DNA from: a virus
Lineage: Duplodnaviria > Heunggongvirae > Uroviricota > Caudoviricetes
Virus record (IMG/VR): IMGVR_UViG_2541047938_000003
Location: 1-42,938 of that record
Length of the DNA stretch: 42,938 bases
Direction: 5' to 3' (one strand)
Of this stretch, positions 3,137 to 17,778 are shown piece by piece. Every line of letters starts with the position of its first letter. Position 1 is the first letter of the stretch. The notes under the pieces were generated by a model. That model saw only the letters and a list, made by a program, of their open reading frames with translations. It searched no databases and had not been told where the DNA came from. The translations under genes and the position numbers were made by a program.

Positions 3137-3750
3137 GCTGCACGCTCTGTGATTTTCTGAATTTCCGATTCCAGATCTGCAAGGAAGCTCTTAACCTCAG
3201 ATTCGATTTCGCGCGCCAGCTCTTCATCGAAATGAATCCGCTTCTTGAAATAGGCGAGGTCAGGCGGCAGGCGATCATCGAAACTAACGAAATCACACCA
3301 TTTCCGCCCGGTGCACATCATCTGTGCATGCATTTGCAGCATGTACTGGCGCTTTGGCTCACCAGTTTTCAGCGTTTCAAGATGGGTCCAGGTGTTGGGG
3401 CATTTGATTTCGATAAGCCCGTCGTCGTTGACAAGTCCGTCCGGGCTGGCTGCGAATCCGGGTATGGTTGGGTGATCGATGAGCCCAACTTCAGTGATTG
3501 CCGCATTGAACTCATTCAGCGCGTACATTTCGCGTGCCACTGGCTCAAGTTCAGTGCCGCGCATCATCGCGGCATTCGAAAACCCTTCCTCCAGCTTCCC
3601 GGTCAGCCGTTGGCAAATCAGCTCGGCCATGTAGTTCTGGCGGCTGGTGGAGTAGCCCGACTTAGTCCGGGCCATGACATCAGCCAGGCGACTGGCTGTG
3701 ACCTTGCCGCAGCGCGCAGCAAACCATTCAGGGGTGCGTTGCTCTATCAT
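3133..3750 (-). CDS. YqaJ-like phage recombination exonuclease
   Basis: N-terminus MIEQRTPEWFAARCGKVTASR is a YqaJ/lambda-exo family signature; sits immediately downstream of the bet-like gene. Confidence 0.8.
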   Translation of the reverse strand: MIEQRTPEWFAARCGKVTASRLADVMARTKSGYSTSRQNYMAELICQRLTGKLEEGFSNAAMMRGTELEPVAREMYALNEFNAAITEVGLIDHPTIPGFAASPDGLVNDDGLIEIKCPNTWTHLETLKTGEPKRQYMLQMHAQMMCTGRKWCDFVSFDDRLPPDLAYFKKRIHFDEELAREIESEVKSFLADLESEIQKITERAA

Positions 3751-4803: not shown

Positions 4804-5775
4804 TCAGTAATGAATTTTCGCGCAGGGGATCAGGTTATCTTTCAGAGCGGTAAGCACTTCGATAGCCTGCTCGCGGGTTAAGCTGGTTTGGCTGGTGAGC
4901 GCGTTAACGATGTTGGTGCCGACCGTCTTGCGGTGCTTAACGTCAGCTTCACGCTTTGCCTGCTCATCGGCGAGGCGCTTCTCTTCGGCCAGGCGGGCAT
5001 CTTCGGCCTGTTTGGCCTTCAGGCGCTCGGCTTCAACCGCCGCGGCTTTTTCGCGTTCCGCCCGGGCTTCCGCTTCCTGCTTCTCGCGAGCTGCACGCTG
5101 TTCCGCTTCGACGCGCTGGCGCTCCGCCAGTTCAGCGCGGGCTTTCTCTTCGGCTTCACGGCGCGCTGCGGCTTCAATCTCCGCTTTGTGCTTCGCTTCG
5201 GCATCGCGGCGGGCTTGTTCTGCCGCTTCCTGTTTCAGCCGCTCATCACGTTCACGCTGAGCCTGTTCCGCCAGACGGCGCTGCTCTTCGCGGTCACGGT
5301 CAAAATCCTTGTTCATCAGTAGAGCCATTTCGTGGTCCGCTTCGAACTTGGCAGCCAGCTCCTGATCGAACCTGATGTTCATCTCCAGCGCTTCGGCGTG
5401 CATCGCGTTCATGGCTTCTTCAGCCTTAATGCGTTCCTGCTCGGCTTCCCATTCGGTGAGTGGGCGGCGGGTCGCATCGCGCAGCTCGTCGCAGGCATCA
5501 ACGAATCGCTTAATTTCGGCCTCAGCCGGACGCACAGCCTCTTTCAGGCGCTTCAGGTACTCACGGCCCGGCTTTTCGATTGCCGTCTTGCTGCGGGACA
5601 CCTGCGCTGCCAGAGAGGCAACACGGTCACGGCCTTTCTTCGTGGACAGGTCCGGCACTTCGTTTACAGCCTGGCGGATTTGCTCAAGGTACGCGTCAAG
5701 GCCGCCCGCTACGTAAAGCACTGGGGCCTGTTCCGGCTTGATTTCGATGACAGTTAAGTCCGTTACTTCGCTCAT
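4804..5775 (-). CDS. Hypothetical coiled-coil protein with E/R/A/K-rich repeats
   Basis: 323 aa; the long charged low-complexity stretch explains the many spurious antisense ORFs in the track. Confidence 0.5.
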   Translation of the reverse strand: MSEVTDLTVIEIKPEQAPVLYVAGGLDAYLEQIRQAVNEVPDLSTKKGRDRVASLAAQVSRSKTAIEKPGREYLKRLKEAVRPAEAEIKRFVDACDELRDATRRPLTEWEAEQERIKAEEAMNAMHAEALEMNIRFDQELAAKFEADHEMALLMNKDFDRDREEQRRLAEQAQRERDERLKQEAAEQARRDAEAKHKAEIEAAARREAEEKARAELAERQRVEAEQRAAREKQEAEARAEREKAAAVEAERLKAKQAEDARLAEEKRLADEQAKREADVKHRKTVGTNIVNALTSQTSLTREQAIEVLTALKDNLIPCAKIHY

Positions 5776-12060: not shown

Positions 12061-12518
12061 CAAACGTAAGTGCAGTAGAAAAAATGGCTGAATTAATGCA
12101 GCAGATGGAAGAGAACTCGCCCCGAGTTGCTGCTCTCCAGTATTGCCTGACACAGGTTGCGGAAAAAGTCGAAGAAGCAGAAAAGCGCAATGCGGAGCTT
12201 GAAGCCAGATGCGCTGCGCTGAGTGCGGAGAATTCGGGACTGAAGTCAGCGATTGACGCAACTATCGGATGGCAGCAATCAACCGATCCGGAGAATGTCG
12301 AAAGCGTTCGAATGCTGGTCGACGTTAAAACCCCGGTAACCGACGCTTTCCTGGCTGAAGTTCTGGCGCATGGGGTGGAGATGGCGGCTTGCGCTCTTGA
12401 TGACGTAAACCAGTTTAATTACGCAAACATGCTTGACGATTTAGCGCAGAAACTTCGCAAGGACTCCAACACCGCAGACCCGTTAGCCGCTGGCATCATC
12501 ACTGAGGTGGGGGATTAG
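12057..12518 (+). CDS. Hypothetical protein with coiled-coil segment
   Basis: ATG 12057 with G-rich RBS; 153 aa. Confidence 0.45.
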   Translation: MTNVSAVEKMAELMQQMEENSPRVAALQYCLTQVAEKVEEAEKRNAELEARCAALSAENSGLKSAIDATIGWQQSTDPENVESVRMLVDVKTPVTDAFLAEVLAHGVEMAACALDDVNQFNYANMLDDLAQKLRKDSNTADPLAAGIITEVGD

Positions 12519-12521
12519 GGT

Positions 12522-12749
12522 ATGGCTAAGTCACAAATGAAATTGGCTAATCGCGCATGGCGTACAGAAACAAAGGCTTTGGGCTGGCATGAAGGGCGTG
12601 GGATGAATCGCAAGCAATGGAAAACTTTCTGCCGGGAAAATGCCGCCACAACCGTAGAGTCGCAAAAATACAGCGATTGTCCTGTATTTGGCGATCAGCA
12701 AGAAGCCAGAGAAATCGTTGCCGAAGAACTTACCGAATGGACACTATAG
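12522..12749 (+). CDS. Hypothetical small protein
   Basis: 75-aa ORF in operon context. Confidence 0.4.
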   Translation: MAKSQMKLANRAWRTETKALGWHEGRGMNRKQWKTFCRENAATTVESQKYSDCPVFGDQQEAREIVAEELTEWTL

Positions 12750-12758
12750 GACTAACCC

Positions 12759-13430
12759 ATGACCAAACTAACCAAAGAACGCTTGGAAGAAATCGCAGAG
12801 CTTGCAAGAAAGGCGACGTACAAGCCATGTGCAATGCACATGACGAATTTATTGGTAGTATGCGATAGCGAAGTTATCGAGGAAATGGCCCGCCAGTTGC
12901 TTGCAAGCATGGAGCAGGAGCCTGTGTCGTACACCTGTAGTGACGCGTTAGATGATGTTTACTGTGGTAGCGCAGCCATGATGGGGCCCGCTGGCGCTGT
13001 GGGAGAAGTACCACTCTACGCAGCACCACAGTTACCGCAGCCAGCGGTGTTATCAGTGTCTGAGGGCGTGCTTAAAAGCCTCTTACCCGATGTTGAGAAG
13101 TCCGAGTTCTGGTTTGAGCATAATGGGAAAATCTTTTTTGAAGGTGTGAGGTTTAACAATGCGGTATTTGAAGCCTGCCGCGCCGCCATGCTTCAGGGTG
13201 CCGAACTTGTAAGTAATCGTGATGAGTTGCCGGATGGTTGGGTGGCTTGCAGTGAGCGGATGCCGGAGAAAGCTGATGAAGTTTTGTGTGCCAAAGAATT
13301 CGATGGTCCAGGTGATTGGCGCCAAAAGGTTGGTTATTACTTAGCGGGGAAATGGACGGTGTATAGCGCATCATGGACGCCGACCCACTGGATGCCACTG
13401 CCAGCAGCACCGCGGCAGGAGGTGAAGTGA
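12759..13430 (+). CDS. DUF551-like phage protein
   Basis: C-terminal WVACSERMPE...VLCA...GYYLAGKWTVYSASWTPTHWMPLP matches the remembered DUF551 pattern. Confidence 0.55.
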   Translation: MTKLTKERLEEIAELARKATYKPCAMHMTNLLVVCDSEVIEEMARQLLASMEQEPVSYTCSDALDDVYCGSAAMMGPAGAVGEVPLYAAPQLPQPAVLSVSEGVLKSLLPDVEKSEFWFEHNGKIFFEGVRFNNAVFEACRAAMLQGAELVSNRDELPDGWVACSERMPEKADEVLCAKEFDGPGDWRQKVGYYLAGKWTVYSASWTPTHWMPLPAAPRQEVK

Positions 13431-13467
13431 CGAACAAGATGACGAGAGTTACCATAGATATAAATCA

Positions 13468-13489
13468 AGGCCCTTAGGGGCCTTTTATT
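13468..13489 (+). terminator. Rho-independent terminator
   Basis: AGGCCC-TTAG-GGGCCT perfect 6-bp stem followed by TTTTATT. Confidence 0.65.
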
Positions 13490-13523
13490 CTATGATAAAC
13501 GGACTTTGTTTGAGAGTGACGCC

Positions 13524-13850
13524 ATGAAGCCCAAGAAGCTAAATGCTGAGCAGCAATACAAATTAGACCTTGAATTGGTCAAGAAGAAGCCTGCGAACCG
13601 GACCGAGGCAAAAGCCCATTTGGCCGCACAGTTACGGATCAGCAAGTACAAGACGCAGACCTCTTCCAAAATCCGCGTAGGCAGTTTTAAGGGGCGGAAG
13701 AAGGTACATTTCAGTAAGGCGGAACAAGCAGCCAGGGCAGCACTAAATAAAGCAAATGCCATTAGATTTTCCGAAGGGGAGGTCGAGTCCGTCGATACGG
13801 ATAGAATCTCAGAAAGTAACAAACGCTGGCGCGGGAGAACTGCTGACTAA
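13524..13850 (+). CDS. Hypothetical basic protein
   Basis: K/R-rich ~108 aa ([11 protein letters not shown]...); start could also be 13506. Confidence 0.4.
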
Positions 13851-14104
13851 TGTCTGACTGGAATATTGCTGCAAAGCCGCAGGAAGAACGCGACAAGGTC
13901 AACGTTGACCTGGCAGCCTCCGGCGTAGCCTACAAAGAGCGCCTGAACATGCCGGTTATCGCTGAGGTGGTGATGCGTGAGCAGCCCGAGCATTTGCGTG
14001 ATTACTTCCTTGAGCGTCTGAAGTTTTATCGCGAGAAGTCGATAGATTTACCAAGGGCATCCGATCCGCGGTACATGGAAATGGCTGATTCTAATAAAAA
14101 ATAA
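13850..14104 (+). CDS. Hypothetical protein
   Basis: 84-aa ORF immediately following with overlapping stop/start. Confidence 0.4.
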
Positions 14105-14155
14105 GCCCTAACGTGTTGATGACCTTATCAGACCTAAACAGGAGGTTTTTCTAAA

Positions 14156-14695
14156 GTGATTAATATCATTGTTGATTCCAATGCTTGGAATTTTTTACAT
14201 GTGAGTGGGATCTCCTTAAGCAACGAGCTTCTTAGCGATTATAACTTTCAGATAACATTAGAGGTGTCTCGTGAATTGCAGGAGTTAGTGGGCAAGGAAG
14301 GGAAGGAAGCTCTTTATGAATTCTTTGTAAGTGAGACTCAGTCGCTTGAAGAGCCCTTATGCTATTTTGGTTTTTACAATGAGTCAGTGCCTGCTGATGA
14401 ACAGCGGTTTGGTGGATTTGGTGTTGGCGGGTTCGCATCTGTTCATCAAGATGATTATTTTCAGAAAACATTCCGCCAAATAAAATCATCAAAGCGTGGT
14501 ATTTATTATGGCAATGAAGCTGACATGCTGATCGGGTCAAGAGGAATTGGGAACACTTTCATACTAACAGAAGATAATAATAAGTCAGGCCCGATGAAAG
14601 AGGCTGAGAACACTATCTTTGTTTCAAGAAAATTTCCTATGACTGTGGAGCAGTTTAAGGAATATCTTGATCTTGAAACCTCAAAAACTCTTTAG
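14156..14695 (+). CDS. AT-rich accessory protein (moron), function unknown
   Basis: GTG start preceded by AGGAGG; markedly AT-rich by eye; N-terminal IIVDSNAW plus later acidic residues loosely PIN-like (speculative). Confidence 0.5.
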   Translation: MINIIVDSNAWNFLHVSGISLSNELLSDYNFQITLEVSRELQELVGKEGKEALYEFFVSETQSLEEPLCYFGFYNESVPADEQRFGGFGVGGFASVHQDDYFQKTFRQIKSSKRGIYYGNEADMLIGSRGIGNTFILTEDNNKSGPMKEAENTIFVSRKFPMTVEQFKEYLDLETSKTL

Positions 14696-14882
14696 TTACT
14701 GCGCTTTGATTTTTCATAATCACTCCGCCATAATCATGTCATCGGAGCCTGAACAACTCCGGTGACTTCTTCGCATTTAAGGGGACTTAAATGCGACCAC
14801 AATCTGAACTCATCGCCTTGTCACAGATGCAGACATGCACCTGCGATTTTCTGCATTCTGCGGTTTCCGTCAAGGAGGCCGT

Positions 14883-15338
14883 ATGATTATCCCCAAAGAC
14901 GGCATCAAGCTACACCGTGGAAATCTTGGTGCTATCACTCAGCATCTGAAGCCACTTCTCGAAAACGGTGAGTGCTTCCGGCTCCAACTCAAAGACTGGC
15001 GCGAGAAGAGAAGCCTTTCACAAAATAGTCTGAGCCACGTTTGGTACAAGGAAATAAGCGACTACCTGATCAAGTCTGGGCGCACTGACGCAACGCCTGC
15101 ATGGGTAAAGCGAAACCTCAAAAAAACTTATCTGGGTTATGAAGAGGTTGAGTACACCGATTTCGTCACCGGAATTAAGACGATTGAATTAGAACTCCGC
15201 CACACGTCCGATCTGGACACTGGCGACATGCACCATTTCATGTGCCAGGTGGAAGGCTGGTGCGCTCAGTTTGGCCTGGTGCTCACAATCCCTCAAAGCA
15301 GCGAATTTCAGGTGCTGCGCGATAAGCAGGAGGCCTGA
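14883..15338 (+). CDS. ninB: NinB-like recombination protein
   Basis: ATG 14883 after AGGAGG; SLSQNSLSHVWYKEIS resembles lambda NinB SLDQNRKLWACLGDVS. Confidence 0.7.
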   Translation: MIIPKDGIKLHRGNLGAITQHLKPLLENGECFRLQLKDWREKRSLSQNSLSHVWYKEISDYLIKSGRTDATPAWVKRNLKKTYLGYEEVEYTDFVTGIKTIELELRHTSDLDTGDMHHFMCQVEGWCAQFGLVLTIPQSSEFQVLRDKQEA

Positions 15339-15508
15339 TGTCAACTCCACTTTCCCGCGTCATCACAAACGAAATCTTTCGCGTTCCGGCGCGCCGCAAG
15401 CCTAAGCCCGCGGTTAAGCCGTCCGATATCCCGACCCTGAAAGACTACACCGCCCGCCTGGTGGATCAGAAATGGCTGCGTCTCGCAGCGAGGAGAAAAT
15501 CAGCATGA
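15338..15508 (+). CDS. ninE: NinE-like small protein (56 aa), not in the supplied track
   Basis: Hand translation [56 protein letters not shown]; C-terminus resembles lambda NinE; ATGA overlaps on both sides. Confidence 0.55.
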
Positions 15509-17703: not shown

Positions 17704-17778
17704 GGGTCAGAAGCACAGCGGTTGTGCGTTCGGCTGTTAACCGAATGGTCGAAGGTTCGAATCCTTCCTGTCCCGCCA
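17704..17778 (+). tRNA. tRNA-Asn-like gene (anticodon GUU), phage-encoded
   Basis: Hand-folded cloverleaf: D-stem GCAC/GTGC, anticodon stem TTCGG/CCGAA with loop CTGTTAA, T-arm GAAGG-TTCGAAT-CCTTC, 3' GCCA; one U-U mismatch in acceptor stem. Confidence 0.55.

Follow-up and report, generated by a model that had tools for sequence, protein, structure and literature searches.

The locus considered here raises the question of what a markedly AT-rich gene of 179 codons is doing between the replication genes and the nin genes of a lambdoid prophage. The gene lies in IMG/VR virus record IMGVR_UViG_2541047938_000003, which was analysed over its full length of 42,938 nucleotides (nt), hereafter called the window. 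The window represents a lambdoid Escherichia coli prophage; its stretch from 13400 to 14900 shares 99.9% identity with a prophage of E. coli L6-21, and the same phage is present on two IMG/VR contigs. An original prediction, made from the letters of the DNA, had placed the gene in an accessory island, had called its product loosely reminiscent of PIN-like nucleases, and had proposed that it might form a toxin–antitoxin or abortive infection (Abi) cassette with the products of two small open reading frames (ORFs) upstream. Our results agree with the island and with the PIN-like fold, whereas the proposed partnership did not hold. We favour, with moderate confidence, the view that the gene is a solitary piece of cargo encoding a PIN-fold protein, which would be expressed early and would act as a metal-dependent nuclease interfering with nucleic acids of the host or of competitors.

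The gene itself (14156–14695, plus strand; the PIN gene below) was found as described. It starts with GTG at 14156, 10 nt downstream of the ribosome-binding site AGGAGG (14140–14145, plus strand), and its stop codon occupies positions 14693–14695, before ninB. The AT-richness was also confirmed: the GC content is 0.39 and that of the third codon positions (GC3) is 0.37, compared with 0.49–0.52 and 0.53–0.60, respectively, in the neighbouring genes and a GC content of 0.515 for the whole window. Relatives of the gene are AT-rich in every host that carries them. When the gene was compared with its orthologue from Scandinavium, the ratio of non-synonymous to synonymous substitution rates (dN/dS) was 0.059, indicating that the PIN gene is real and evidently under strong purifying selection.

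Two checks had been suggested for the encoded protein, a profile search and a structure prediction. No match was obtained in Pfam, NCBIfam or PADLOC, and the PHROG to which the protein belongs, phrog_26388, is unannotated. The AlphaFold2 (AF2) model had a mean predicted local distance difference test score (pLDDT) of 78.8 and a predicted template modelling score (pTM) of 0.78, and showed a PIN fold, that is, three alpha/beta/alpha layers around a central parallel sheet (core strands S1–S4), as expected of a member of the PIN-like superfamily. The best matches of this model in Foldseek were all PIN-like, with a probability of up to 0.94 for the Shigella VapC (3tnd), and the structural hits included the PIN domain of an archaeal Holliday-junction helicase (5f4h). 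Among viral structures (BFVD), Foldseek detected nothing significant. With sequence profiles, the only match of the family in the PDB was the PIN protein 1o4w (E = 0.076), over the first strand and the second helix; with a wider family profile (A2) this match was lost and the search returned an unrelated protein at E = 0.74. Scanning 46 family members against Pfam produced only noise, one of the 46 touching PIN_9 at E = 0.07.

In PIN-like proteins the active site is made of acidic residues located after S1, after S2, at the N-terminus of a helix and after S4 (PMC5499597). The 179-aa protein carries acidic residues at precisely the positions that this definition of the superfamily demands: the predicted catalytic residues are D7, which follows the strand of residues 2–6; E36/E40, after the strand 29–32; D123, at the start of helix 121–129; and D140, which follows the strand 134–138 and is part of the motif T138-x-D140. 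D7, E40 and D123 are invariant among the 46 distant members, and position 140, in the T-x-D motif, is either D or E. Since no curated model matches significantly, the assignment to the PIN superfamily draws on the predicted fold together with the arrangement of active-site residues. On this basis the loose resemblance noticed originally can be put more firmly: as modelled, the protein is a divergent member of the VapC-like group, with a PIN fold and a full complement of predicted metal-binding acidic residues.

It differs from VapC toxins in its length, 179 aa against about 130, which is due to a C-terminal strand–helix extension and to a glycine-rich, family-specific insert of about 35–45 aa (residues 62–95) with the motif FGF...EQRxGGFGxGxF at residues 71–92; nor does any Pfam PIN model detect it. 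The motif at 71–92, the most conserved of the family-specific ones, is not part of the PIN core and, like many binding loops, has a predicted flexibility. One could therefore picture a PIN-like scaffold without catalytic activity, whose effect would come from binding to a factor of the host or the phage, and a harmless protein would also persist more easily without an antitoxin. However, all four acidic positions are conserved in more than 46 distant members, which would be unexpected for an inactive scaffold, and we consider this explanation very unlikely.

The two small ORFs were confirmed at 13524–13850 and 13850–14104 (both plus strand), and RefSeq annotates both of them identically in E. 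coli L6-21; the stop codon of the first overlaps the start codon of the second as TAATG. The second ORF encodes the small acidic protein of 84 aa that had been considered a possible partner or antitoxin-like component. It turned out to be a homologue of the theta subunit of DNA polymerase III (Pol III), of the HolE/phage P1 HOT type, scoring 118.4 bits against Pfam PF06440 (E = 1.1e-34; cut-off 34.6), 107.9 bits against NCBIfam PRK10969 (cut-off 97) and E = 2e-39 against phrog_1105, with which RefSeq agrees. Theta and HOT associate with the epsilon proofreading subunit and stabilise it (PMC2528190). By homology, the 84-aa protein is thus a genuine member of an already known gene type, a helper of the host DNA polymerase. 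Unlike HolE and HOT it is encoded in a lambdoid early right operon and has a C-terminal tail of 10–15 residues, and this tail also serves as a recombination joint, as described below. The first ORF encodes a basic protein of 108 aa, read from ATG (p108; phrog_14068), for which no Pfam, NCBIfam or PADLOC family was matched in our scans. Its family is confined to prophages of Enterobacterales and has two conserved blocks; the AF2 model is non-compact (pTM 0.41) and consists of a helical hairpin, a beta-hairpin and a helix. The p108 gene occurs both with and without theta and the PIN gene. Judged from these comparisons, the two small genes are independent cargo, one a replication accessory protein predicted to bind the Pol III proofreading subunit and the other p108.

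The distribution of the PIN gene was examined by an exhaustive profile search. The family comprises 182 cluster representatives, counted at 50% identity, across Proteobacteria; all are about 180–200 aa long, all are unannotated, and none gave a match in Pfam, NCBIfam or PADLOC. N-terminal extensions of the longer members resemble mis-called starts and not fused domains. Close relatives of the 179-aa protein (48–96% identity) were found only in Enterobacterales. Among 5426 complete E. coli genomes the PIN gene is present in three, and of the 24 complete E. coli genomes that carry a theta gene of this type, the PIN gene accompanies it in three prophages. Our literature searches on the RefSeq accessions, on the PHROG and on PIN genes of the lambdoid nin region brought up no pertinent work.

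We inspected the gene neighbourhoods in 12 distinct enterobacterial and six remote contexts. An intact theta gene was located within 1.2 kb 5' of the PIN gene in seven of the 12 enterobacterial contexts, only theta fragments were seen in two, and no theta was present in three. In theta-less contexts the gene 5' of the PIN gene encodes a 677-aa cytosine methyltransferase in Phytobacter (L014/L050), a DUF551 protein (L045) or a 420-aa membrane protein (L044). The remote contexts, from all of which theta is absent, are a moron island among the tail genes of a Pseudomonas lundensis prophage, near a YafO toxin gene; the end of a prophage; a site beside a Vibrio filamentous phage; an integrative element, close to hsdR; a conjugative plasmid of Nitrosospira, adjacent to the relaxase gene; and a moron island among head genes. 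No defence or Pfam annotation was found in scans of the neighbours of these remote members. As far as these neighbourhoods show, this uncurated family travels on proteobacterial prophages, plasmids and integrative elements, and none of its neighbour genes is constant.

These contexts also bear on a possible role in DNA metabolism, in which the protein would be a structure-specific nuclease (of the flap endonuclease, FEN, or Holliday-junction type) working with the replication genes, theta and NinB/RusA. The gene does have the replication module on one side and the recombination module on the other, most of the enterobacterial contexts link it to theta, the PIN-like superfamily contains 5' nucleases (PMC5499597), and the Holliday-junction helicase domain 5f4h is among the structural matches. 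We nevertheless regard this role as unlikely. The closest structures are RNases of the VapC type and not FEN-type enzymes; the remote members lie away from replication genes, in tail and head moron islands, on a conjugative plasmid and beside a filamentous phage; and the gene is rare and dispensable, as seen in the three of 24 theta-bearing E. coli prophages, and absent from isolated phages.

The same data can be used to judge the toxin–antitoxin or Abi cassette of the original prediction. In this type II arrangement the toxin role would fall to the PIN protein and the antitoxin role to p108 and/or theta, and release of the toxin upon phage attack would kill the lysogen. Several features are suggestive of it: the VapC fold, the small genes immediately 5' of the PIN gene, the overlap of the theta stop with the PIN start in the Pantoea-type prophages L011 and L040, and, in P. 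lundensis, an ORF of 65/99 aa that overlaps the PIN start next to the YafO toxin gene. Non-canonical antitoxins of VapC-like proteins, such as VapS, also exist (PMC13373217). But the 84-aa protein is an ordinary theta/HOT protein, and the same theta (91% identical) and p108 (94% identical) precede unrelated cargo; near-identical copies of the two adjoin such cargo in GB089, FDAARGOS_1277 and AR_0061. The PIN gene occurs without theta or p108 in three of the 12 enterobacterial contexts and in all of the remote ones, and in Pantoea up to three other cassettes intervene between theta and the PIN gene.

Searches for the usual components of such a cassette were likewise negative. No ribbon–helix–helix (RHH), AbrB, PhD or helix–turn–helix (HTH) domain was found, and the PIN protein, theta and p108 matched no defence model of PADLOC-DB v2 beyond noise. 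No upstream promoter or operator was seen; a consensus scan detected no sigma-70-like promoter between 13485 and 14155, although weak or atypical promoters could escape it. An Rfam scan of 12500–15500 showed no RNA family, and the window contained no tandem or direct repeats fit to serve as antitoxin of a type III system. Compared with the VapC toxins of VapBC systems (Shigella VapC/MvpT, 3tnd; Caulobacter VapC1, 5k8j), the PIN gene has neither a VapB-type antitoxin nor a conserved partner: the neighbours vary over the 12 and six contexts, whereas VapBC modules keep an adjacent DNA-binding antitoxin as a conserved pair, and the gene is part of a phage early operon instead of a two-gene operon autoregulated from its own promoter. 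A system known as VapKSC, in which a VapC-like toxin is controlled by a STAS-domain partner and a kinase, shows that a VapC-fold nuclease with a non-canonical inhibitor can act in phage defence (PMC13373217); no STAS or kinase genes are present at our locus, however, and the sequences are unrelated, so the analogy is purely functional. Taken together, we give the cassette very little credence, and it is improbable that the PIN protein serves as toxin in an addiction module of two genes.

The island had been read as accessory, and a check had been suggested of whether related prophages have different genes at exactly this junction. They do, and the region is accessory cargo. From the comparison of variants, the PIN gene in the window is a one-gene cassette, made up of the ribosome-binding site and the ORF, which fills a variable slot between the 3' end of theta and a conserved joint upstream of ninB. 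On the left, the variants diverge in the C-terminal tail of theta, at about codon 77. On the right, homology among all variants starts about 10 nt past the PIN stop, at TTGATTTT(C/T)CATAATCA (window 14705), and it extends to phi80, HK639, HK225, the orf33 region of phage 82 and the GB089 cargo variant. Alternative cargo seen in the slot consisted of a 181-aa protein with two transmembrane (TM) segments, one N-terminal and one C-terminal hydrophobic stretch (L025, 2089–2634), a 216-aa protein (L003, 4692–5342), proteins of 82–86 aa (L024, 2221–2481) and a 420-aa protein with C-terminal membrane segments (L044, 2000–3262). The first three of these follow near-identical theta and p108 genes in other E. 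coli prophages. The genes of this alternative cargo gave no Pfam or PADLOC match.

The right boundary, the ninB-upstream joint (14705–14882, plus strand), is an ordinary lambdoid feature. It contains a promoter-like sequence, TTGATT-17-CATAAT (14706–14734), a hairpin (14828–14845) and a perfect 10-bp inverted repeat, CGCATTTAAG/CTTAAATGCG (14772–14781/14786–14795), which bears the name IR4 in the phi80 annotation and is marked as a 'possible regulator-binding site' in that of phage 82; a 31-aa ORF in the same region (14791–14886) is the equivalent of orf33 of phage 82. In this boundary, and in having cargo that varies between similar prophages, the locus resembles the nin mosaics of phage 82 (orf33–orf151, X92588) and phi80 (IR4). 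It differs from the known lambdoid nin cargo in that the cargo here is a PIN-fold gene, which occurs in no deposited phage genome, and from the known nin mosaics in that its Pantoea relatives separate their cassettes by repeated theta 3' ends and terminators.

In these Pantoea-type prophages (L008, 4970–5995; L011, 5933–6960; also L033–L036 and L046–L049) we observed two to four copies of a 65–69-nt repeat corresponding to the 3' end of theta/hot. The repeat encodes PRGxDPIYQKEE and carries GGAGG, and one copy stands directly 5' of each of two to four small cargo genes, the PIN gene included. Most of the cassette genes finish in a near-identical intrinsic terminator, CCGCCCnnnGAGGCGGTTTTTT. 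The whole looks like a repeat-bounded gene-cassette array.

The joint upstream of ninB can be repeated as well. In Enterobacter asburiae and in one IMG/VR contig a joint of about 190 nt was found duplicated on both sides of the PIN cassette, which indicates that cargo was stacked in the slot by recombination at the joint; the copies lie at 5288–5476 and 6527–6716 in L004 and at about 3300–3560 and 4540–4720 in L044. Raoultella ornithinolytica (L039, 4849–5758) shows another arrangement, in which a theta ORF is split around the PIN gene and the initial 55 nt of the ninB joint, with theta codons 1–20 upstream and 33–84 downstream, at the end of the contig; from its structure this is evidently a product of aberrant recombination or insertion. 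These repeats and duplications suggest that recombination took place many times at two conserved joints, exchanging and stacking cargo. The linkage of theta with the PIN gene thus stems from the slot, not from the PIN gene itself. Theta and PIN as a functional pair were also considered and rejected, because the same joints surround other cargo and theta-less contexts exist.

The organisation of the slot is reminiscent of a selfish element. The PIN gene might be a free-standing homing-type nuclease that cuts the theta/hot–ninB junction of related phages lacking it and is copied in by recombinational repair. Such genes are known in T4-like phages, where Seg and Mob homing endonucleases are encoded by single, AT-rich, sporadic genes wedged between conserved genes and flanked by duplications. 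The PIN gene is similar in all of these respects: it forms a cassette of a single gene with closely set boundaries, is AT-rich in all its hosts and sporadically distributed, it has theta or theta fragments at its flanks in nine of the 12 enterobacterial contexts, at differing positions, and its joints are duplicated in L004 and L044; the Raoultella cassette within theta could be read in the same way. The resemblance ends with the fold, which is that of another nuclease, and DNA cleavage by the PIN protein is hypothetical. VapC-like PIN enzymes are RNases, and we know of no PIN-fold homing endonuclease. Non-nuclease cargo in the slot shows the same joints and repeats, so that the linkage is explained by the slot, and theta is missing in three enterobacterial and all remote contexts. 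A homing nuclease thus appears highly improbable, although it would be a new fold for that lifestyle and would account together for the recurrent association with theta at varying positions, the duplication of the joints, the high AT content and the patchy occurrence.

We therefore return to the solitary, early-expressed PIN-fold nuclease. In every enterobacterial context the gene and an early (pR or pL) operon run in the same direction, and among its early-operon neighbours elsewhere are theta, orphan DNA methyltransferases, SSB, Erf and RecT. As the gene has no detectable promoter of its own, lies between a terminator and the nin genes and follows the direction of the early operons, it is likely a delayed-early gene, which would be transcribed with the early operon after infection or induction. 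The product would be an endonuclease dependent on Mg2+ or Mn2+; RNA is its most probable substrate, by analogy with the VapC-type PIN enzymes, which are the best structural matches. The benefit to the phage would most plausibly lie in counter-defence, takeover of the host or exclusion, in conflict with either the host or competing elements.

Several observations speak against this interpretation. The Foldseek E-values (0.03–0.1) and the sequence links to PIN proteins (E about 0.07) are each weak when taken singly; an alignment of the A2 profile with the Shigella VapC (3tnd_A) by hhalign covered the region of strand S4 alone and was not significant; and the most conserved family-specific segment, residues 71–92, was modelled at low confidence. 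The PIN gene was present in none of 50,697 phage records, and that sequenced virulent and isolated phages lack it is unexpected for a general function in the lytic cycle. In P. lundensis the gene is on the strand opposite to the tail genes, next to the YafO toxin gene, and its start is overlapped by the ORF of 65/99 aa. Some remote members thus resemble morons expressed in the lysogen, and the P. lundensis case would fit defence or toxin–antitoxin function better than an early lytic role.

Bacterial PIN-fold nucleases are best known as VapC toxins, which are restrained by an adjacent antitoxin. The family described here is a widespread one that curated domain libraries do not recognise, with an intact predicted active site, a glycine-rich insert and no fixed partner. 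If the protein is indeed an active nuclease made early, it would be a candidate single-gene weapon in phage–host or phage–phage conflict, and the sparing of its own carrier would then need to be explained. The locus also displays, at the level of sequence, the way in which a lambdoid cargo slot is assembled and takes up new content, which may be useful for predicting where other accessory genes are situated.

Orphan DNA methyltransferase genes (cytosine-5 type, Dam and MT-A70) were noticed near the PIN gene in four independent contexts (L014, 3910–5943; L039, 1437–3284; L040, 5838–6410; L008, 7118–7783), and a gene resembling that of 3'-phosphoadenosine 5'-phosphosulfate (PAPS) reductase in L040. 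The methyltransferases suggest that the early-operon surroundings are rich in anti-restriction functions.

At the left edge of the island, a strong terminator had been predicted at 13468–13489. We found an intrinsic terminator at 13467–13493 (plus strand), between the DUF551 and p108 genes and at a position like that of tR2 in the early right operon. Its hairpin (13467–13484) is AAGGCCC-TTAG-GGGCCTT, with a 7-bp stem containing five G–C pairs, followed by the T tract TTTTATTCT. The predicted folding energy of the RNA was −14.9 kcal/mol (z = −2.8), and an equally good fold was obtained in one of 200 shuffled sequences. The number of terminator-like sites in the region, five, was not in excess of that in shuffled sequences (3.0 ± 1.7). 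Despite this count, the hairpin is taken to be real, since it occupies the 93-nt gap 3' of the DUF551 gene and its stem is kept, through wobble or two-sided changes, in prophages L003, L004 and L025. A terminator of this kind is an ordinary lambdoid feature.

The wider gene order is that of a lambdoid phage. To the left of the region are the genes for the repressor, a Cro-like protein, YdaT, a replication protein, a DnaB-type helicase, a Ren-like protein, several small proteins and DUF551; to the right, the region is followed by ninB/YbcN, ninE, a phosphatase gene, rusA, Q and tRNA-Asn. The first gene of the nin module, ninB or orf-like (14883–15338, plus strand), matches phrog_72 (E = 2.9e-40) and is assigned by RefSeq to the YbcN family. 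The tRNA-Asn gene (GTT; 17704–17778) lies directly 3' of the Q antiterminator gene, and the same is true of the related prophages L001 and L002. Just 5' of the region, the DUF551 proteins of the window and of the L6-21 prophage are only 50% identical, although the DNA is 99.9% identical from 13400 on; the 3' end of the DUF551 gene, at about 13400, is thus apparently another mosaic joint.

A last observation concerns p108. Its C-terminal block (...RFxExxVxSVD...KRWRGRTAD) is shared with an otherwise different protein of 60 aa that replaces p108 in E. coli MLI104K1 (L002, 3836–4018), and both genes overlap the start codon of theta. The conserved tail may have a role in coupling to theta, or it may be another recombination joint.

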